Below, one piece after another: positions 2,988 through 47,548 of a stretch of DNA of 64,000 bases. Both the position numbers and the translations under genes were made by a program. The notes under the pieces are model-generated. The model did not search any database. It saw nothing but the letters and a program-made list of their open reading frames with translations, and was not told where the DNA came from. The DNA is taken from IMG/VR virus record IMGVR_UViG_3300031088_000645. One strand, 5' to 3'. This DNA is from an uncultured virus (IMG/VR IMGVR_UViG_3300031088_000645) (taxonomy: Duplodnaviria; Heunggongvirae; Uroviricota; Caudoviricetes). Within the stretch, counting starts at the first letter, position 1. The number at the start of each line of letters is the position of its first letter.

Positions 2988-3296
2988 TCAGAATAGTGTC
3001 GGGTGGGGGTCTGCTAGTTTGACTGTGCCTGACTCAAAGTGGATTTCGACTACCTGGCTTGCGTGTGCTGCGAGCAGGGCTGGCTTCATTTCTGCCGCGC
3101 CTACTCCACATGTAACCGCAGTATCGGCAAGGACATCCTTGATATCTCTACGCTCGTTATCAATGAGGTAGGTACGGATGACCTCTACCTGTCTTTCGAT
3201 GTATGCCGACTTCTTATTCGCTTCCATACTAAGAAGTCTACCGAAGGGGATTGCCTCATAGACGTTAACGACCAAACCGCCTTCACTGTGAGGCAA
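2988..3296 (-). CDS. hypothetical protein (start uncertain)
   Basis: ORF co-oriented with neighbours. Confidence 0.55.
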   Translation of the reverse strand: MPHSEGGLVVNVYEAIPFGRLLSMEANKKSAYIERQVEVIRTYLIDNERRDIKDVLADTAVTCGVGAAEMKPALLAAHASQVVEIHFESGTVKLADPHPTLF

Positions 3297-8777: not shown

Positions 8778-8870
8778 ACTTTTACCCTATCGCATAAAGA
8801 CGCAAGCGTCAACCACCGAACCATTTCGCGCACTACACGCCGTGGTACTATCCTCGCGACAAGGAGAGCA

Positions 8871-9503
8871 ATGTCGAACCAGGAAGACTTCGAGAAAGCA
8901 GTACTCGCCCGCGCCGAGAAAAAGGGTGAGTCTCCCGAGATTGCGCGTCATGTTCTGACCCGTGCTACCGACCCACAACATGAGGTTTCTATCGAGTTCT
9001 CTGATGAGGATGGTGAGGACTACCGGTGGAGTTCGTTCAAGCCGCACGTACTCTTCCCGAGCCTTGCGGCAATGGATGCTTTCATCTACCGAGTGGTGCG
9101 TGGTTCTGAGTTCTCGTTCACGCTAGTGAGTCGTTTTCCTTACGAGACGTATCGGGTAATGGAGCATGAAGGTGAGACCTACGAGATACCAGTGAAGAAG
9201 ACTATCGCTGATGGTCTTCGAGCTATTCACCAGCTTGCTGATTACTGCCAGACCTCATCCCTTGTTGATACCGTGGGCTACATCGATATGGTGCAGATGA
9301 TCGCACTGGATCTTGATGCCTTCGTTCTCGATGGCTGTTTTGATGATGCCGATAACCCCGAAGCGCTAGAAGACCTGCTCCGCCTCATCGTCTCTGCGAG
9401 AACCAGGAATATCTACATCGTTGCATATGCCTCGGAAGTGTCGAGTGGTCATTTTGCGGCACAATTGTTCGACCATATCGAGACTGTCACGAATATAAGC
9501 TGA
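8871..9503 (+). CDS. hypothetical acidic protein (start MSNQEDF)
   Basis: AAGGAGAG RBS; C-terminal half loosely resembles a degenerate P-loop alpha/beta fold. Confidence 0.75.
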   Translation: MSNQEDFEKAVLARAEKKGESPEIARHVLTRATDPQHEVSIEFSDEDGEDYRWSSFKPHVLFPSLAAMDAFIYRVVRGSEFSFTLVSRFPYETYRVMEHEGETYEIPVKKTIADGLRAIHQLADYCQTSSLVDTVGYIDMVQMIALDLDAFVLDGCFDDADNPEALEDLLRLIVSARTRNIYIVAYASEVSSGHFAAQLFDHIETVTNIS

Positions 9504-9698: not shown

Positions 9699-11045
9699 AA
9701 AATCGGAGCGTAACCCACGCCTTTATTCGTGGGTTGAATAACGACAAAATAGATCACAAGTAGATTTTATCACTCAGGATGATACAGTATAAATCATGAC
9801 CACCCAGACCGTGAAGCGGGCATTCAAGTACCGCTTTTATCCGACTGATGAGCAAGCTGCATTGCTTGCTCGGACGTTCGGATGTGCCCGGTTGGTCTAT
9901 AACAAAGCGCTCGATGCCAGAACCCAAGGTTGGACATTAGAGAACAAGCGCATTACCGGTTTCGATACCATGAAGATGCTTACCGAATGGAAGAAGACTG
10001 AGGAATTGGCGTTTCTCAGTGAGGTGAGTTCAGTAGCTCTTCAACAAAGCCTTCATCATCTTCAAGATGGATTCTCCAACTTCTTTGCTAAGAGGGCTAG
10101 GTACCCGAAATTTAAGTCACGACATGACAATAAGCAATCGGTGACATTCGTTGCCTCGGGTTTTAGATACGATGAGGCGGCTCAGTCCATAACTCTCGCT
10201 AAAATGAAGTTACCTCTTGACATCGCATGGTCACGAGATCTACCACTAGGCTCATCGCCTAGTTCAGTCACGGTTTCCCGAGATGCATCTAACCGGTGGC
10301 ATATTTCTATGCTGGTCGATGCTCCCGTTACCGCGCTACCAAAATCCGCCAAAGCGGTTGGAATTGATTTCGGAGTGACGACCCTCGCCGCCCTCTCGGA
10401 CGGCTCCATGTTCTCGAATCCGCGCAACGAAGCGAAGGATCGCAACAAGCTTTACCGCCTGCAAAAAGAGCTTGCTCGGAAGCAGAAGGGTTCAAGAAAC
10501 CGCGAGAAAGCGCGCGTGAAAGTCGCGCGCGTTCACGCACGAATCGCTGACCGAAGGCGAGACAATCTCCATAAAGTGACCACCAAAATCATCCGCGAAA
10601 ACCAAACGGTGATTCTGGAAGACCTGAATGTGCTGGGGATGCGCTCGAACGGTCGGAGCTTCAAAAAGGGACTCAACCGAGCTATTAGCGATGCTTCATT
10701 TGGTGAGTTCCGGAGCATGCTAGAGTACAAAGCTGGCTGGTTCGGTCGTGAGATGGTTGTCATTGACCGCTTCTACCCGTCCACAAAGATGTGCTCCAAC
10801 TGCGCCAACATCAAACCTATTGGTCTGGGAGACCGGGTTTATCACTGCGAGAAGTGCGGTCATAGCGAAAACCGCGACCTGAACGCAGCTAAGAACATCC
10901 GAGCCGCAGGACTTGCGGTCTTAGCCTATGGAGACGGCGTAAAACCTTCCCGCGTTAAAGCGCGGGTGGTAGCTGTTAGTGAAGTAGGAAGCCCTTCTGA
11001 GCAATCAGTGGGAATCTCACACCTTAAGCGTGGGAAAGATGTCAA
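9699..11045 (+). mobile_element. IS200/IS605-family (IS1341-type, tnpB-only) element; left boundary approximate
   Basis: similar subterminal hairpins at left (AACCCACG-cctttatt-CGTGGGTT, 9712-9735) and right (GAAT-CTCACACCTTAAGCGTGGGA, 11012-11035); right end ...GATGTCAA at 11045; no tnpA. Confidence 0.75.
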
Positions 11046-11079
11046 GGACTCATCCTCAAACCGATTGGATTTCCCGTGA
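9796..11079 (+). CDS. tnpB: TnpB RNA-guided endonuclease
   Basis: KRAFKYRFYPT HTH start, RuvC motifs GIDFG / ILEDL / NRDLNAA, Zn ribbon CSNC..CEKC. Confidence 0.95.
   Translation: MTTQTVKRAFKYRFYPTDEQAALLARTFGCARLVYNKALDARTQGWTLENKRITGFDTMKMLTEWKKTEELAFLSEVSSVALQQSLHHLQDGFSNFFAKRARYPKFKSRHDNKQSVTFVASGFRYDEAAQSITLAKMKLPLDIAWSRDLPLGSSPSSVTVSRDASNRWHISMLVDAPVTALPKSAKAVGIDFGVTTLAALSDGSMFSNPRNEAKDRNKLYRLQKELARKQKGSRNREKARVKVARVHARIADRRRDNLHKVTTKIIRENQTVILEDLNVLGMRSNGRSFKKGLNRAISDASFGEFRSMLEYKAGWFGREMVVIDRFYPSTKMCSNCANIKPIGLGDRVYHCEKCGHSENRDLNAAKNIRAAGLAVLAYGDGVKPSRVKARVVAVSEVGSPSEQSVGISHLKRGKDVKDSSSNRLDFP
10900..11065 (+). ncRNA. predicted omegaRNA/reRNA overlapping the tnpB 3' end, guide from right flank (GGACTCATCCTCAAACCGAT); 5' boundary approximate
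   Basis: established TnpB architecture applied to the right end seen at 11045. Confidence 0.55.
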
Positions 11080-39573: not shown

Positions 39574-39996
39574 ATGACAAACAGAACAGCAGCAGTCGGA
39601 GACATCTACAGCCGTACGGTTGGTGGGGAGTTTCGGGTTATCGAGATCCTCGCAATTGTTGATGAGAATGACGCTAAGGGTAATCCCGAGTCATACATTA
39701 CGAAGACGGTGTACGACGATATCAAGCCAGAAAGGCTGGGTAGGGAAGGCACTATCAAGGCTAAGCGCCTCGATGGTAGGTCAAGTGAGTGGAGCTACAC
39801 ACCGCGAGACACCAACTACGACCTAGAAACGAATATCATTCTGTGGGAAGCTCGCACAAAGGGTGCCTACGGTAACTGGGAATCGTTCATCAAGAAGCAT
39901 GCTGATCGAGATATCGAGACACGATTCGCCATCCTCAGTGCATGGCTGGTTGGTGTCGAACGAAGAATTGCTAGTGTAGGTGGGACCGGAGGATAA
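39574..39996 (+). CDS. hypothetical protein, paralog of 38574-38891
   Basis: TACTAT-N6-ATG. Confidence 0.75.
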   Translation: MTNRTAAVGDIYSRTVGGEFRVIEILAIVDENDAKGNPESYITKTVYDDIKPERLGREGTIKAKRLDGRSSEWSYTPRDTNYDLETNIILWEARTKGAYGNWESFIKKHADRDIETRFAILSAWLVGVERRIASVGGTGG

Positions 39997-40026
39997 GGCG
40001 TAGGTGATAGTGAGGGAGAAGGTTTT

Positions 40027-40161
40027 ATGGCAACCAGATTACAGATAGCCCGTGCAAGGGCGCGAGTGTCCCTAGCTGAGCTTTCCGGCAAGGAGCTTCC
40101 CTCAGATGTCGTCGAAACAGCACTCATCGCTTTCTCTGACGCGGAAGATGCTAAGCGCTAG
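40027..40161 (+). CDS. 44-aa hypothetical protein (MATRLQIARARARV...)
   Basis: GGGAG RBS; followed by terminator; not in ORF track. Confidence 0.55.
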   Translation: MATRLQIARARARVSLAELSGKELPSDVVETALIAFSDAEDAKR

Positions 40162-40172
40162 TCGCACCAACA

Positions 40173-40210
40173 AAGAAACCCCCTGAGCTACAGACTCAGG
40201 GGGTTTTCTT
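40173..40210. terminator. bidirectional terminator closing the RNA cluster
   Basis: AAACCCCCTGAG-ctacaga-CTCAGGGGGTTT. Confidence 0.85.
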
Positions 40211-40216
40211 ATGTGT

Positions 40217-40311
40217 ACACATCCACGACGAAGACCACCTCGCAACTTGATGGACCCGACTCAGCCAGTCCACTAATCTTCGTACCTACCTGCCGATTCG
40301 GACAGATGTGT
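40217..40311 (-). ncRNA. candidate structured RNA module G
   Basis: closing stem ACACATCT/GGATGTGT, bulge CGAATCGGCAGGT, stem ACGAAGATTA/TGGTCTTCGT, inner hairpin. Confidence 0.6.
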
Positions 40312-40339
40312 TGTCCTCGCTTGAAGCGAGACTAGTTAG

Positions 40340-40447
40340 GGTTCATGCACTCAAAGCAACCCTGTCCATAGGGAAAGTTTTGAAGCCAGTTAGCTCTATT
40401 CGACCAAGCTATCACTTTGAGTCTGACCTGCCGACTCGACATGAACC
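40340..40447 (-). ncRNA. candidate structured RNA module F
   Basis: closing stem GGTTCATGT/GCATGAACC, bulge CGAGTCGGCAGGT, stem ACTCAAAG/CTTTGAGT, two inner hairpins. Confidence 0.6.
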
Positions 40448-40451
40448 TTTG

Positions 40452-40533
40452 TGCGGGTGAAGGGACTTGAACCCTCACGTCCGAAGACACAGGAACCTAA
40501 ATCCTGCGTGTCTGCCAATTTCACCACACCCGC
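40452..40533 (-). tRNA. tRNA-Leu (anticodon TAG), CCA not encoded
   Basis: acceptor GCGGGTG/CACCCGC, anticodon arm CAGGA-TTTAGGT-TCCTG, variable arm, T arm GAGGG-TTCAAGT-CCCTT. Confidence 0.95.
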
Positions 40534-40737
40534 ATGTGTGTTCCTCTTTGATGTTGTAGGTAAAGCGTATCTTGCTTTTTGGTCGTTAGAAAATCGGGGT
40601 GAAAGGGAAGGGTCTGGTTGAGATAGACAACGACCAAGAAACCATAACTCAACCAGACCCTTCGGTGATTATACATCACCCTATTTGACCCATAGTTGGG
40701 GACAGTTTGTACTTGGACCTTACTGCCAATCTACCAG

Positions 40738-40823
40738 TGCGCCTGATGGGACTCGAACCCATAAATCCTTGTGGACACCGATTACTCAAACCGGCGCGTC
40801 TGCCAAAATTCCGCCACAAGCGC
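40738..40823 (-). tRNA. tRNA-Leu (anticodon GAG), CCA not encoded
   Basis: acceptor GCGCTTG/CAGGCGC, anticodon arm CCGGT-TTGAGTA-ATCGG, T arm ATGGG-TTCGAGT-CCCAT. Confidence 0.93.
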
Positions 40824-40866
40824 ATGTTGTGGAGCGTCGTGCTCTGTGCTCCGTTGTTATATCTCA

Positions 40867-40895
40867 ACCCTATCATCACTCTACGTGGCTGTCAA
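40867..40895 (-). promoter_or_regulatory. SigA-type promoter of the tRNA unit
   Basis: TTGACA-N17-TAGGGT with TGn extension. Confidence 0.8.
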
Positions 40896-40902
40896 GTTGA
40901 TT

Positions 40903-41102
40903 CTTCATGAATCTGAAACCAGACACAAGCTGTTCGTGTCTTACCCAGTGACCCCGCTCCCGTCAGCCTAAGCTTCCTGTAAGAGCACCCGTAGGTTGTA
41001 TCCGCATGGCGGCAACACTCGGCGTATCAGCACAGACACCAGTGGTGAAGGCGGAGTATTCGGGGTGTGGTCGGGCTTGTGTCTAGATTCAGACTCATGA
41101 AG
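40903..41102 (-). ncRNA. candidate 200-nt structured RNA module E
   Basis: 28-position closing stem with one mismatch and two G-U pairs on the minus strand, asymmetric bubble, nested stems. Confidence 0.65.
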
Positions 41103-41103
41103 T

Positions 41104-41439
41104 ATGGAAAGAGGTCAGTCCGTAAGTTTCAACGATTCTTAGGGTGATTCAGGACCACCATTCACTTCGGACTCGTTACCGTATCGCTAGACTCTTATTC
41201 CATCCTGAGATGAGGACTATCACCAGACCCGCTGCTTACGCGGTGGGTGGAATCGACCACCCTCGTCCATTCGATGACGCAGCAACATGTCATCTCCTAT
41301 TGTTCATCTCAACCTGTTCGATAAGTGCGACACCGCGCCTCTGTACCACTGCTTGTACCATTTTGGGATTCGACCCTTCACTCGCCTCGCCCCTAGCATT
41401 GTGTATCAGTTCAGGGTTTGGCTTTTCGGTCGAACAGGT
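41104..41439 (-). ncRNA. candidate structured RNA modules D (41104-41203), C (41206-41311), B (41312-41439)
   Basis: each has its own closing stem (ATGGAA..AGAG/CTCTTTCCAT; TGAGATGA/TCATCTCA; ACCTGTTCGA/TCGAACAGGT); T-loop-like hairpins in B and C. Confidence 0.6.
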
Positions 41440-41494
41440 AATTGTTCTCTTTTGAGTTGGTAGCTGCGGGGTGTTTCTCCGTCGCTATGTTTAT

Positions 41495-41524
41495 ACCCTA
41501 TCAGCATCTCGCAGGCGATGTCAA
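41495..41524 (-). promoter_or_regulatory. SigA-type promoter firing into the RNA module array
   Basis: TTGACA-N18-TAGGGT with TGn; no credible ORF downstream. Confidence 0.75.
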
Positions 41525-41579
41525 ATTCAAGTCAAGAGTTTTTCACTGTACAGTGAAAAATGCCCGATCCTTGAAAAAC

Positions 41580-42323
41580 TTAGCCAGCGAGAGACACCAT
41601 CTCGGTGATGTTGCGGGCGTTGTGCTGGCGAAGCTCGGCTGCTGCCTTCAAGTGCATACCTGCGGTCTGCAAAGTTCCAACAGCCTGGTTCTTCAGCGAA
41701 TCAGCCCGACGTTCGTGCTGCTCGATGGTGGCGCTTCCCCACGGGATCTCAACACCATCGAGGGTGAATGTCGAGCCAAGAAGCTCTTCGGTCCACTCCA
41801 CTCGAATCTGGTGCTTCAGTTCCTCCATTGCGCGCTCCATGTTGTGACGGAACGAGGAAAGCACCTGAGCACTGCGTGCATCTCGCTCTTCGGCTCGTGC
41901 GAGAGTCTTCTTGCGACTACGTACCTGCTCGTAAGTGCGAGAGTGGTCACGCTTCCACTGAACCGCCTTCCCAGAGTTGAGCCAGTCCTGGGTCGGAAGC
42001 TTATCCTCACCAATGACTTCGGCAGGAACGCTCTCAGCCACCTTCTCTTCGACAGAGACGTAGACCACGGGGACGGGTTCATCACGAATCGCACTGGACT
42101 CGACCTGGCGGGTCTTGGCTCGCTGAGTGATGTTACGCCTCTCGTTCAGCCATGCCTCTGCGATGAGTTCGATGTTCTTGCGATTATCTTCGTCATGAAC
42201 CCACTTCCAGATGGCAATTGCATCGTCAGATTCCGTAAGGGCACGGATGTCGTCTTTCAGTCGCTTCGAGAAGTGAGTACGGTCTGCGCCGAACTCTTCT
42301 GCGGTGGTGAGGTGGTTGGTCAT
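41580..42323 (-). CDS. hypothetical charged helical protein
   Basis: AGGAG RBS, 247 aa ORF. Confidence 0.8.
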   Translation of the reverse strand: MTNHLTTAEEFGADRTHFSKRLKDDIRALTESDDAIAIWKWVHDEDNRKNIELIAEAWLNERRNITQRAKTRQVESSAIRDEPVPVVYVSVEEKVAESVPAEVIGEDKLPTQDWLNSGKAVQWKRDHSRTYEQVRSRKKTLARAEERDARSAQVLSSFRHNMERAMEELKHQIRVEWTEELLGSTFTLDGVEIPWGSATIEQHERRADSLKNQAVGTLQTAGMHLKAAAELRQHNARNITEMVSLAG

Positions 42324-43180: not shown

Positions 43181-43867
43181 TCATGTGACGTAGTACTTAG
43201 TGTCGTCGATGTTGAAGTAAGGGTTGCCCTCAACGAGAGATTCTCCTGCCGCCTGCCAATCGATGTTGTTGGTGAGCCAAGACGGCATAGTGCTTTCGTT
43301 GAATGAGCCTGTCTGGAAGGCGTACTCTTCGGCGTTGCCAGCGACGTAGGACTCTTGGATAACGATGACACCGTGGTTGTCTCCTACAGCTTCCCATGCT
43401 GCGGCAATGTCCTCAGCGTACTGACGTAGGTTATCTGGTGTGTACTCTTCCGGCTTGTCTGGTGGCGGTAGAAGACCGATGTTCTCGATGATGTCGTGGT
43501 GCTTGTCAAGAAGCTCGATGAGGTCGCCTGACTCAGACTCGGACTCTTCGTCAAAGGTGACGCTTTCGTCGTCTTCAAGCTCTGGATGTGCGGTACGTGC
43601 GGATTCTAGATAAGACTCCAACTCACTACCAATGTCAGTGAAGACCTTAGCCATGTCGCGAACATCGAAGTAGTCGTGGTCGAAGAGTGCGGTTGTCTCG
43701 TCAGAGAACTCGTACGGCTCAATCTCTGCTCTCGTGGTTGCTGCGGGGGCTGGTGCAGCGATACCGGATGCGCGATTGCTTGCGCCGTTTCCTTTATCGA
43801 GGTTCTTGTGAACGGTTGTAGCCTTGCCGTTCTTGTCGATGATGTGGGTGGGTGTTAGGTTGCTCAT
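43181..43867 (-). CDS. acidic ArdA-like (antirestriction DNA-mimic-like) protein with N-terminal DKNGK tag
   Basis: very D/E-rich; C-terminus AEEYA..TG....MPSWL.NNIDW.AAG.SL resembles ArdA C-terminal domain; GGAGGA RBS. Confidence 0.55.
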   Translation of the reverse strand: MSNLTPTHIIDKNGKATTVHKNLDKGNGASNRASGIAAPAPAATTRAEIEPYEFSDETTALFDHDYFDVRDMAKVFTDIGSELESYLESARTAHPELEDDESVTFDEESESESGDLIELLDKHHDIIENIGLLPPPDKPEEYTPDNLRQYAEDIAAAWEAVGDNHGVIVIQESYVAGNAEEYAFQTGSFNESTMPSWLTNNIDWQAAGESLVEGNPYFNIDDTKYYVT

Positions 43868-43869
43868 GG

Positions 43870-44481
43870 TTAGTTTCCTCCTACGATGAAGTCTGAGACT
43901 CTGCCGCCGATTTTGCCGTCCCAGACGCTGAATGAATTCTCGGGTGATGGTCGTCCAAGTCCGCCCTCGCGCTCCTGTGCTACGGCGCGGTCTCCTACGT
44001 TGTAAGCGACGTTCTCCCATCCATCAGCGAGGATGTCGAGCCTATCGATGTAGTCCTGCACTTCGTCGGTGTCAAGCTCGTCGAGCGGCACATAGTTCTC
44101 TTCGTCAATGTTGGAAAGGCGTTCGTCCCACTTACGGATTTCCTCGGTGAGGTCATAGATGCTTGCGAGGTCGTCTTCGTTGGTGAACTCGACGGTATCC
44201 TCTTCTTCGACTGAATCCATGTGGTTGCGAAGCTCTTCAGCATAGGCGCGGAATGCACCGACAACATCGCGAAGGTCTACCTCTTTGGTATCGAGGTCTA
44301 CCGTGGGCATCTTGGACTCAAATCGGTACTGAACGCCGCCGTCTGATGTGCTGGGAGCAAGGGTGCTCGTTGCAGCACCCACCCTACCTGCGTTGACCCC
44401 GGAGCCATCGTCATCACGGGAGTAAACCGTAGTGTGCTTGCCGTTCTTATCGATGATTTGTTTGGGACTGACGTTACTCAT
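43870..44481 (-). CDS. acidic paralog with DKNGK tag, lacking the ArdA-like C-terminal domain
   Basis: shares D.RD....F.....EL and L..(A/G)W..V segments with flanking paralogs. Confidence 0.75.
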   Translation of the reverse strand: MSNVSPKQIIDKNGKHTTVYSRDDDGSGVNAGRVGAATSTLAPSTSDGGVQYRFESKMPTVDLDTKEVDLRDVVGAFRAYAEELRNHMDSVEEEDTVEFTNEDDLASIYDLTEEIRKWDERLSNIDEENYVPLDELDTDEVQDYIDRLDILADGWENVAYNVGDRAVAQEREGGLGRPSPENSFSVWDGKIGGRVSDFIVGGN

Positions 44482-44587
44482 CAAGGATTCCTTTCGATTA
44501 GCCCAATGGTATCAGTGACGCATGACTATAGATCTGATGGACAAACGAAAAGACCCCGACTGTACGCCGGGGTCTCATTCGCTCATC

Positions 44588-45268
44588 TTATGTGAGGTAG
44601 AAGGTGTCGCCATCTGCATCGAAGGTGGGGTTGTTGCCGATCAAGTCGTCAGCAACACCAGCCCAGTTGATGTTCTCTTTGAGCCAAGCTGGCATCTCAT
44701 CGGGGATAGATCCTGTGTCAGTGACGAACTCTTCTGCGTACTCTTCCTTGTAGTCATCCTTGATGATGGTTACGCCGTTCTCGTTCTGAATGTTGTCCCA
44801 TGCCTCAGAAAGCTCTTGTGCGTATCCAGCCATCGCATGAGGTGTCTCTTCGTCAGGCTTTTCGACTTCCTCCAAGCCCATCTCGCAGAGATATCCAGCG
44901 AATTTGTCAAGGTGGTCAACCAAAGCATCAACATCAGAGTCATCGTCGAACTGAACTTCTTCAGGCTCTTCGAAGCCGTAAGCTTCCTGGCTCTCATCGA
45001 CATATCCGCGTAGCTCCTGAGCGATGCCAGCAAAGTCCTCTCCGATGTCACGCACGTCGAAGAAGTCTCCCCTGAGCCTCGAAGTGGAGTTGTCGGTGAA
45101 CTCGTAGGACTCGATATCTGGACGCTCTACAGCGGCAGGCGTAGGTGCTGAGTTGGCAACGCTGCTGGCACGGTCTGACACACCGCCAGAACCCTTGTCG
45201 TTGTTCTTGTGAACAGTCGTCGTCTTGCCGTTCTTATCGACAATCGTGGTGGGCGTGAGGTTGCTCAT
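44588..45268 (-). CDS. acidic ArdA-like protein with N-terminal DKNGK tag
   Basis: full-length paralog of 43181-43867; YAEEFV.DTG.IP.EMPAWL.ENINW.GVADDL. Confidence 0.55.
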   Translation of the reverse strand: MSNLTPTTIVDKNGKTTTVHKNNDKGSGGVSDRASSVANSAPTPAAVERPDIESYEFTDNSTSRLRGDFFDVRDIGEDFAGIAQELRGYVDESQEAYGFEEPEEVQFDDDSDVDALVDHLDKFAGYLCEMGLEEVEKPDEETPHAMAGYAQELSEAWDNIQNENGVTIIKDDYKEEYAEEFVTDTGSIPDEMPAWLKENINWAGVADDLIGNNPTFDADGDTFYLT

Positions 45269-45372
45269 AGATGTTCCCTTTCGTTGTCTCAATGGTATCA
45301 GTGGGTAGCGACAGCCAGCTTCTTACGGTAGCGTCCGATGTTCTTGGTAACCTTGTATGAGAAAGGCTCACC

Positions 45373-46056
45373 ATGACAACTGTCCCCACGCCCATCGTCG
45401 ATAAGAACGGCAAGCTCACCACGGTACATAAGAAGTTTGGATACGGTGCTGCTACCCGTTTGCTACCTACGCCAGAGAAGAACTTCGTTCCCTCTGGTTC
45501 CAAGATAGAGACAAGTGCACTGGCTAAGCGTTTGGCTGCATTCGATTACGGCACTGACAGCTTCAACCATATCGAAGCTGGTCTCAAAGACCACTTCTAC
45601 GAGACGCATGGTAGCGGGGCATACAGTGAAGAATCAGGTGAGTTGATTGCCAACGCCGTCTTCCCCAAGGGTCACGCATCGTCATACGCAAGAGTTCAGA
45701 CCGACTACCGCGACTTGTCCGCCATCATGCTCGCTTCTCTTTACGACGACACCGAGCACAGTTCGCTACCGGCAGACCAGAAGCTTGATGCGGATATGGC
45801 ACTCAAAACACACGATGCCAACATCACTAACCGAGCGCCTCACCCCAACATCACTCGAACCATCGACTCTCAATTCGTCAACCATCTGATTGACGACAAG
45901 TCTCCTGGTGTTGGCGAACTAACCGCAAGACAGCTTGCGAGCTTCGTATTCAAGAACGGTGAGCAGAGTGGTCATACATACGATGCCATGAGCAAACAGT
46001 ATGACGTACTCATCTCCACTCTCAACAAGTTCAGGGAGAACGAGAAAGAGGACTAA
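45373..46056 (+). CDS. hypothetical protein with N-terminal DKNGK tag
   Basis: PTPIVDKNGKLTTVHKK then unrelated domain. Confidence 0.8.
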   Translation: MTTVPTPIVDKNGKLTTVHKKFGYGAATRLLPTPEKNFVPSGSKIETSALAKRLAAFDYGTDSFNHIEAGLKDHFYETHGSGAYSEESGELIANAVFPKGHASSYARVQTDYRDLSAIMLASLYDDTEHSSLPADQKLDADMALKTHDANITNRAPHPNITRTIDSQFVNHLIDDKSPGVGELTARQLASFVFKNGEQSGHTYDAMSKQYDVLISTLNKFRENEKED

Positions 46057-46573: not shown

Positions 46574-47548
46574 ATGTCTGGTCGCCATATCAATGATTTG
46601 TTCCTCGCCTTCGGAGAAAGGGATGTCCGAAAGTTTGAGCGAGCCGGTCGCGCCATCATCCATGAGGAAGAGAGCAAGCGACACACTAACCTCGCTAAAT
46701 CGCTCTCTAAGAGCCTGGACACCTCCATTGGCAAGAGAGGCGGCACTGATGGCGTAGCGCCGCTTCCTGACCCGCCTGTGGACCGTGACACCCAAATCCC
46801 GCTTGCATCGGTCACGCAGCCAACCAGGCGGCTTGATAGCCTCATTCTCGATGAGACGGTCACCAGTCATCTGTCTGAGTTCATCTCCGAGGTGCAGCAG
46901 TGGCACAAGCTCGATGAGAAGGGTATCCCTCGTCGGAGCAGGATGCTGCTCTATGGTCCTCCCGGTTGTGGCAAGACCTCCATTGCCAGTGTCATTGCGG
47001 CAGAGCTAGAACGACCTCTCGTCACCGTCAAGGTAGAGAGCCTCATCTCCAGCTACCTAGGTCAGACGGCAAGTAACGTAGCGGCACTATTCGACTTCGC
47101 TCGTCAGGGTGAGTATGTGCTGTTCCTCGATGAGTTCGATAGCGTGGGAAAGAGCCGCGAGGACAGTAGAGACCACGGTGAGACCCGCCGTATCGTCAAT
47201 GCCATCCTCCAGCAGATTGATACCCCGATGGGCAACTCCATCGTCATCGCTGCAACTAATCACAGTGAAATCCTTGATGCGGCACTCTGGCGACGGTTCG
47301 ACCTCATCCACGAAATCTGTCTCCCTGACGCTAAGCAGATTACTGATGTCGTCAACCTCACTCTGGGTAGTCATGTCAAGAAGCGATTCGCTACGTCTGA
47401 TGTCGCAGAACTGGTTGGTCTCCCTCATTCCGCTGCCGAGTACATCGCCAACACCCTTCGTCGTCGATCCGCACTACTAGGTAGAGCAATCGACAATTCA
47501 GCCCTTCGTGATGCGGTCAAAGAGACTACCGACCGGCGCTGGTCATAA
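46574..47548 (+). CDS. AAA+ ATPase of the IetA-like (normally S8-peptidase-linked) type
   Basis: LLYGPPGCGKT, SSYLGQTA.N, LFLDEFD, AATNH..ILD.ALWRRFD; N-terminal F.....II.EE..K.H..LA..L. Confidence 0.8.
   Translation: MSGRHINDLFLAFGERDVRKFERAGRAIIHEEESKRHTNLAKSLSKSLDTSIGKRGGTDGVAPLPDPPVDRDTQIPLASVTQPTRRLDSLILDETVTSHLSEFISEVQQWHKLDEKGIPRRSRMLLYGPPGCGKTSIASVIAAELERPLVTVKVESLISSYLGQTASNVAALFDFARQGEYVLFLDEFDSVGKSREDSRDHGETRRIVNAILQQIDTPMGNSIVIAATNHSEILDAALWRRFDLIHEICLPDAKQITDVVNLTLGSHVKKRFATSDVAELVGLPHSAAEYIANTLRRRSALLGRAIDNSALRDAVKETTDRRWS

Follow-up and report, generated by a model that had tools for sequence, protein, structure and literature searches.

Small stable RNAs of phage tRNA clusters have been known since T4 and have no assigned function, rnaC and rnaD of T4 being described as “RNAs of yet unknown functions” (PMC9697503). 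In T4, rnaD (species 2, 119 nt) follows tRNA-Arg after 1 nt, and rnaC (species 1, 139 nt) follows after 6 nt. The ornate RNAs GOLLD and ROOL are likewise encoded by phages or prophages near tRNA genes (PMC12286853). YrlA is a stem-closed small RNA with tRNA-like hairpins that is also present beside tRNAs in actinobacteriophages, and the Y RNA genes lie within ~4 kb of the Ro60/Rsr (TROVE) gene on the same strand (PMC4201824). Here, we analysed the region 40217-41524 of a 64,000-nt stretch of DNA from an uncultured virus (IMG/VR record IMGVR_UViG_3300031088_000645), the whole of which is referred to as the window. This region contains two minus-strand tRNA-Leu genes, a pair of nearly identical units of promoter and hairpin, domains closed by stems and a strong terminator. 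We consider it reasonably probable that a phage-like mobile element of plant-litter and leaf communities carries a stable-RNA operon here, in which tRNAs are combined with cassette-like RNAs; our confidence in any specific function of the extra RNAs is far lower. The RNAs are new to Rfam and are probably expressed.

The closest known case is that of T4 rnaC and rnaD. In both loci, non-tRNA RNAs lie on the tRNA strand, a few nucleotides from a tRNA and within the same transcription unit; here, the module named F begins 3 nt after tRNA-Leu(UAG) and has a common terminator with it. As in the stem-closed modules of this locus, the ends of T4 rnaC are paired, and rnaC folds well (z-score -4.6). Sequence similarity between the T4 RNAs and the modules is, however, absent (blastn-short, E≤0.1), and rnaC has a canonical 7-nt T loop beside its 3' end, whereas the T-like hairpins of the present locus have 6-nt loops and lie in the middle of the modules. 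Compared with T4, the modules here are more numerous and larger, the locus has its own promoters, and one block of modules is exchanged between strains. GOLLD and ROOL differ in being single folds of 580-800 nt, whereas this locus is modular, partly dispensable and without a match to their models. As regards YrlA, a model match is lacking, as are an Rsr gene in the window and the conserved T and D arms. The locus adds a case with its own promoters, with modules absent from Rfam 15 and with signs of expression in natural communities.

Layout and predicted folds of the RNA region

The region occupies a gap of ~1.45 kb between the stop at 41580 of a minus-strand gene and convergent plus-strand genes ending near 39996-40127, and all other gaps in the window are shorter than 300 nt in a greedy map of open reading frames (ORFs). 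An earlier reading of the DNA made from the letters alone (the sequence-only reading) had seen no credible ORF in these ~1.3 kb. This was confirmed, as none of the 13 ORFs of at least 40 amino acids (aa) in the gap has a Pfam match at E≤0.1 and a homologue search with the longest of them (103 aa, plus strand) was empty. The minus-strand gene upstream (41580-42323) is a real gene, encoding a protein of 247 aa with six metagenomic homologues. The predicted fold of this protein (pLDDT 75.5, pTM 0.39) has no PDB fold match at E≤0.001, so that no functional link to the RNA region comes from this gene.

In the direction of the minus strand, the proposed operon has the order P1, leader hairpin, B-C-D, E, P2, leader hairpin, tRNA-Leu(GAG), hairpin spacer, tRNA-Leu(UAG), F, G and terminator (Table 1). 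The strand of the transcript was assigned from the tRNAs, promoters and terminator. A further argument of the sequence-only reading, that G-U pairs fall on the minus strand, did not hold overall, as 19 G-U pairs among 270 were counted on the minus strand versus 29 among 275 on the plus strand, and only E and G favour the minus strand. A cloverleaf by RF00005 and ARAGORN was obtained only for the two tRNA-Leu genes, and the modules yielded no further tRNA or pseudo-tRNA when ARAGORN was relaxed to 80-85% with introns allowed. Calls of tmRNA at the 70% ARAGORN threshold were discarded as spurious because they rest on the T arms of the tRNAs. The codons CTC, CTT and CTA, which are read by the two tRNAs, account for 70% of leucine codons across 29 ORFs from the left part of the window.

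Table 1. Coordinates of the features of the RNA region and of the RNA-library contigs that match it.
Feature	Position in window	Strand	Evidence or content
Perfect 22-23-nt palindrome	41537-41559	no strand	7-8 nt upstream of the P1 -35 box; unique in the window
Promoter P1, TTGACA-N18-TAGGGT	41495-41524	minus	Motif enrichment
5' leader hairpin of the P1 transcript	41461-41487	minus	z -3.4, 0/200 shuffles as good; kept in the global fold and retained in variant X13
B-C-D cassette (12-nt lead-in, B 41312-41439, C 41206-41311, D 41104-41203)	41104-41451	minus	Closing-stem probabilities 0.84-0.99
Module E, 200 nt, 27-pair closing stem	40903-41102	minus	z -5.67, 0/200 shuffles; stem probabilities 0.97-1.0
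Promoter P2, TTGACA-N17-TAGGGT, paralogue of P1	40867-40895	minus	Motif; GATAGGGT box in common with P1, similar leader
Leader hairpin of the P2 transcript	40829-40854	minus	9-pair stem
tRNA-Leu, anticodon GAG (gag)	40737-40823	minus	ARAGORN; Rfam tRNA 44 bits
16-pair hairpin in the 203-nt inter-tRNA spacer	40607-40663	minus	Spacer z -3.85, 0/200 shuffles
tRNA-Leu, anticodon UAG (tag)	40451-40533	minus	ARAGORN; Rfam tRNA 54.4 bits
Module F, 108-nt stem-closed domain 3 nt after tRNA-Leu(UAG)	40340-40447	minus	Same domain in minimum-free-energy and centroid folds; energy ordinary
Region G, hairpins, not cleanly closed	40225-40320	minus	z -0.5; own closing stem absent; minus -29.1 vs plus -18.5
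Bidirectional intrinsic terminator, common to the convergent plus-strand genes	40173-40210 (stem 40176-40206)	both strands	13 pairs, 7 of them G-C
X15 RNA contig	40251-40474	no strand	G down to 40251, F and tRNA 3' end
X15 RNA contig	41165-41428	no strand	D, C and B
X16 RNA contig	40956-41102	no strand	Part of E
X16 RNA contig	41104-41476	no strand	B-C-D; end ~12 nt below the expected P1 start

Both promoters proposed in the sequence-only reading were present as TTGACA/TAGGGT sites, and the pattern TTGAC-N16-20-TAGGGT had three matches in the window versus 0.18 expected. A strict sigma-70 scan, on the other side, returned no promoter, because TAGGGT is far from TATAAT. The combination TTGACA/TANNNT is the housekeeping promoter type of actinobacteria. 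The third TTGAC-N-GATAGGGT motif lies on the minus strand at 8784-8812. Each of the two promoters of the region is followed by a similar short hairpin, and the promoter-leader unit therefore looks duplicated. The terminator, which had also been proposed from the letters, proved to contain the 13-pair hairpin given in Table 1.

The unconstrained fold of the 595-nt P1 transcript gave centroid domains at 41487-41461, 41439-41312, 41311-41206, 41203-41104 and 41102-40903, with closing-stem probabilities of 0.84-1.0. The hairpin and the modules B, C, D and E, which the sequence-only reading had placed 0-2 nt apart, were thus reproduced with exactly the same borders. The whole P1 transcript has a z-score of -3.3 against 150 dinucleotide shuffles. 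When a tight junction was defined as at most 2 nt between domains of at least 80 nt, the P1 transcript was found to have three in a row, and two or more occurred in 2 of the 150 shuffles and in none of 103 native 595-nt windows. At the level of single parts, energies lower than those of shuffles were obtained for E, the inter-tRNA spacer and the 5' hairpin (Table 1), module C was marginal (z -2.2), and B, D, F and G did not stand out. Support for structure is good for E and for the hairpin of D and thin elsewhere.

Module E, which corresponds to the inverted repeat I6, has terminal inverted repeats of 27-31 nt. Its fold energy was -86.5 kcal/mol on the minus strand versus -79.1 kcal/mol on the plus strand, and its 27-pair stem includes two wobble pairs that are readable on the minus strand only. 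The interior of its minimum-free-energy fold is multi-branched; this, together with the lack of a 6S model match at E≤10, led us to reject 6S RNA as an identity for E. The hairpin between the tRNAs may, from its predicted fold, be a processing site or a U-poor terminator. As regards the two modules that had been placed after the tRNAs, F stood as a robust closed domain (40447-40340), and G lacked a clean closure. Paralogy among the modules was not found, the words in common being only 7-9 nt, and the 64-kb window contains no second copy of B-C-D, D or E.

The modules could not be matched to a known RNA family. At the gathering score of Rfam 15, only the two tRNAs match, and at E≤10 the only additions are terminator-driven noise near 40170-40314; the sequence-only reading had left the modules without a family. 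Searched alone against Rfam 15, B-C-D and E gave no match at E≤10, and the GOLLD and ROOL models found nothing at the same threshold in 1.9 kb or in sub-searches of 396 nt and 221 nt. In addition, searches of open-access full text gave no account of this set of RNAs.

Natural variants and RNA-library contigs

Phyllosphere, plant, straw and leaf-litter samples are the source of the public sequencing runs that contain the stretch, X2-X14 being the DNA runs among them. Natural differences were taken from the DNA runs X13 and X14 and the RNA runs X15 and X16, for which 40 of 296 differences were listed. In X13, position 41103 is joined to 41452 with one letter between them, and B-C-D with its 12-nt lead-in is absent as a block of 348 nt (41104-41451). 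The leader hairpin and E are kept in X13, and X14 carries B-C-D; it follows that B-C-D is gained or lost cleanly as a unit. This presence/absence variant offers a ready-made genetic contrast.

The RNA region is more conserved than the neighbouring genes in X13. The changes inside it amounted to 3 of 338 nt and 10 of 607 nt (0.9-1.6%), and those in the flanking genes to 16 of 540, 10 of 324, 69 of 615 and 44 of 754 nt (3-11%). The three listed substitutions that fall in predicted stems all keep the pair (G-C to G-U at 41246, G-U to G-C at 40250 in G, and A-U to G-U at 40618 in the spacer hairpin), and the remaining listed substitutions lie in loops or linkers. Module E shows, among the listed changes, four single-base insertions (X14) and one substitution, all of them in the interior and none in the closing stem.

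Words of the stretch occur in six RNA runs, the shares in X17-X20 being 0.10-0.19. In the metatranscriptome runs X15 and X16, all four window-like contigs lie inside the region and none maps to the flanking genes (2.7 kb). The two contigs of X16 meet end to end at D/E and differ in depth (2.1 and 5.1); since the longer of them passes through 41452, the break at D/E does not reflect a graph branch introduced by the deletion variant. The tRNAs, the spacer and the 3' half of E are without RNA-contig cover, which is not evidence of their absence. As the RNA contigs bridge B|C and C|D, B-C-D behaves as one unit of ~350 nt and not as three released beads.

Other contigs of X16, with depths of 105 and 11, match the window only in two blocks of D. 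Judging from the loose ends of these contigs, 10 of the 15 nt enclosed by two identical flanks depart from the window sequence in this D-like relative. Read by eye, these 15 nt nevertheless form a hairpin of equal size, in which one pair has changed in both arms and three in a single arm, none being broken. Furthermore, D-like blocks recur 382 nt apart in a 412-nt contig of X16, indicating that relatives carry repeated D-like units.

Interpretation and alternative explanations

The sequence-only reading had left two alternatives, a polycistronic cassette of small RNAs or one large ornate RNA, and the results favour the former. In the mechanism that we propose, the enzymes with which the host matures tightly spaced tRNA arrays (RNase P, RNase Z or E) would cleave the precursor at closing-stem bases, and RNase III would possibly cut the long stem of E. 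Cutting would release tRNAs for the commonest leucine codons of the element, along with stable by-standing RNAs. The stem-closed units are spaced by 0-3 nt, as in the tRNA array of Curtobacterium phage Yappy and in T4 rnaD/rnaC, which suggests release by tRNA-maturation nucleases. The break between the contigs gives a weak hint of processing at D/E, and there is no support for processing at B|C or C|D. As the weakest step, the released RNAs might act in trans during infection as protein-binding decoys or scaffolds.

Several observations count against the stable-RNA operon. The energy of the P1 transcript is ordinary relative to native sequence of the same window (z -0.9), the plus strand folds equally well, and B (z -1.0), D (z -1.45), F (z -0.8) and G (z -0.5) are no better than shuffles. 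The RNA contigs were assembled at a depth of 2-5 from runs picked for containing this stretch, and carry-over of DNA is possible; they carry no information on strand, ends or level, and by bridging B|C and C|D they leave cutting at every junction unsupported. The variation sample is small (the 40 listed differences), its changes are all transitions, and about half would keep a pair by chance; the pair-keeping substitutions therefore lend the structure weak support. That the element is a phage is something we infer, and the 64 kb yielded no phage hallmark gene such as one for a capsid, portal or terminase protein. Finally, protein, pattern and blast searches recovered no homologous locus for a covariation test. 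The 247-aa upstream protein, alone or as the alignment A1, found no such locus in viral, genome or metagenome contigs; a query with the AAA ATPase of the window against viral contigs was empty, as were patterns for the module B word and the D motif against viral, metagenome and genome contigs, and blastn against phages and plasmids gave tRNA matches only or nothing. Nine loci found in viral contigs by the 3' word of tRNA-Leu were set aside as unrelated, the tRNA alone being in common, and a 19-nt match between module C and a complete IMG/VR phage (L014), which lies inside an ORF of that phage, was taken as chance.

The modules could instead be decayed remnants of a larger tRNA array, a neutral spacer transcribed only through its position in a tRNA operon and without a function of its own. 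Such an origin would account for the T-arm-like hairpins with a GGUCGAAU/GGUCGAUU core in B, C and F, for the D-loop-like GGCAG strings in the spacer and F/G, and for the ordinary energies of single modules. We nevertheless regard it as unlikely, since the relaxed ARAGORN search showed no further tRNA or pseudo-tRNA, the modules of 100-200 nt with closing stems of 8-27 pairs are unlike tRNAs of 75-90 nt, and sequence conservation in X13 is 2 to 10 times higher for the region than for the genes beside it. The D-like RNA, moreover, is abundant in another organism with its hairpin kept through changed pairs. A single ornate RNA of GOLLD/ROOL type spanning the whole 1.3 kb, with the tRNAs in a linker, would agree with the occurrence of these RNAs in phages and prophages, often near tRNA islands, and with the phage tRNAs that sometimes lie in the GOLLD linker (PMC12286853). 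It appears very improbable, as a GOLLD/ROOL match is absent at E≤10, the promoter P2 lies within it, after E and ahead of the first tRNA, the whole B-C-D block is dispensable, and a break between RNA contigs falls at D/E. The best pairing of the two halves of the region was also no better than with shuffles (-135 versus a mean of -139 kcal/mol).

The clean presence/absence polymorphism of B-C-D, the terminal inverted repeats of E and the D-like blocks 382 nt apart in one X16 contig would also be expected if B-C-D or E were a mobile insertion, namely a small intron, an element like a miniature inverted-repeat transposable element or a recombination cassette, whose fold is a by-product of terminal repeats. 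Little probability was given to this explanation. Models of group I or II introns gave no match; a group I intron is preceded by U at the 5' splice site and has a terminal G, whereas B-C-D follows A and ends in U on the RNA strand, and a group I intron was rejected for this block. Both B-C-D and E are present once only in the 64 kb, E shows no visible target-site duplication at its borders, and its two wobble pairs are strand-specific. More improbable still, in our assessment, is that D and G are Y-RNA-like partners of Ro60/Rsr tied to RNA quality control or repair. This possibility was raised by GUCCGAA, which stands in the 5' strand of a helix in both D (41166-41172, a bulged helix) and G (40297-40303), with two matches on this strand in 1.3 kb versus ~0.1 expected from the window-wide rate in a post hoc count. 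The word resembles GGUCCGA, which is contacted by Ro60, and the bacterial GNCGAAN0-1G (PMC4201824), although the motif is short and its fit to GNCGAA is inexact. The window also encodes polynucleotide-kinase-like and HAD_SAK_2 proteins with a flavour of RNA repair. Against it, the Y RNA and YrlA models had no match at E≤10, no TROVE-domain protein was found among ~100 ORFs of the window scanned with Pfam, the near-invariant T and D arms of YrlA are absent from the modules, and the 7-mer is not enriched window-wide (9 found versus 10.2 expected).

The polycistronic stable-RNA cassette is thus the reading that we retain. A much bolder extension, which we hold to be quite unlikely, is that B-C-D and the D-like RNAs, the latter at 20-fold higher depth in a leaf-litter metatranscriptome, form an undescribed abundant RNA family. 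Its members would move as cassettes between phages of plant-litter bacteria, be released from tRNA-type precursors and target, in trans, a host protein that handles RNA; they might, for instance, serve as decoys for tRNA-targeting defence nucleases or for Ro60-type RNA surveillance. The present locus would then be one case of a general, so far unrecognised class of phage stable-RNA operons. If such RNA cassettes were a common tool of phages, they would represent an unexplored level of the conflict between phages and hosts, and new RNA folds could be drawn from them; if they were mere packing material of tRNA operons, they would provide a useful baseline for RNA-discovery scans.

The palindrome upstream of P1 and the remainder of the window

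The arms of the palindrome upstream of P1 are TTTTCACTG and CAGTGAAAA. The same 23 nt were found as an exact match inside the tRNA array of phage Yappy (positions 3001-3023 of the extracted locus L001), and the same arms occur between tRNA-Val and tRNA-Lys in the tRNA array of the complete 165-kb IMG/VR phage L014 (2501-2520); the palindrome is also listed for L013/L015 and L016. In the variant X13, the arms are kept with a different central pair, and the flanks have diverged (loose end at 41532). From these occurrences, the palindrome may be a candidate operator or processing hairpin tied to stable-RNA genes in phages of ~53-56% GC. The alignment A1 was not found in three palindrome-bearing IMG/VR records, and no protein is common to the window and the first 50 kb of Yappy. 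In the tRNA array of Yappy, the interval 8797-8946 (L001 2760-2909) between tRNA-Leu and tRNA-Ser contains an unannotated unit composed of a promoter-like site, a ~110-nt hairpin RNA and a strong terminator (z -7.8). An Rfam match at the gathering score is absent.

The 64 kb consist mostly of ORFans in both orientations and include genes for polynucleotide-kinase-like, DnaQ-like exonuclease, YqeY, HAD_SAK_2, methyltransferase, IteA-like AAA ATPase and TnpB proteins. The AAA ATPase (46574-47548) matches phrog_3757 (2e-87) and the NCBIfam model “anti-phage ATPase IteA” (1.4e-75, but with 255 bits far short of the family cut-off of 510 bits). The gene at 9796-11079 is of TnpB/IS605 OrfB type with helix-turn-helix, OrfB_IS605 and Cas12f1-like TNB domains. 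Adjoining the RNA operon, four genes at 43181-46056 (three minus, one plus) have a conserved N-terminal stretch in common (repeat family D2, inverted repeats I1-I3), and two of them match phrog_25535; judged by these sequence repeats, they appear to be a local paralogue family.

Two pairs of intergenic duplicates, each with 81% identity, were observed at 17121-17205/17594-17678 (85 nt) and 36347-36398/37531-37582 (52 nt). The 85-nt pair adjoins a matching pair of terminator-like hairpins (I4), and the duplicates look like copied regulatory regions. From ~47.6 kb, the gene content shifts, and the GC content of the segment 47616-64000 rises up to 56-58%. This segment encodes a 1006-aa GH81 glucanase with T-Q ester domains, a StiP/PRTase_2/PELOTA protein, TerD, TelA and TerC/DUF475, and it may be host or plasmid backbone beside the ORFan-rich part.

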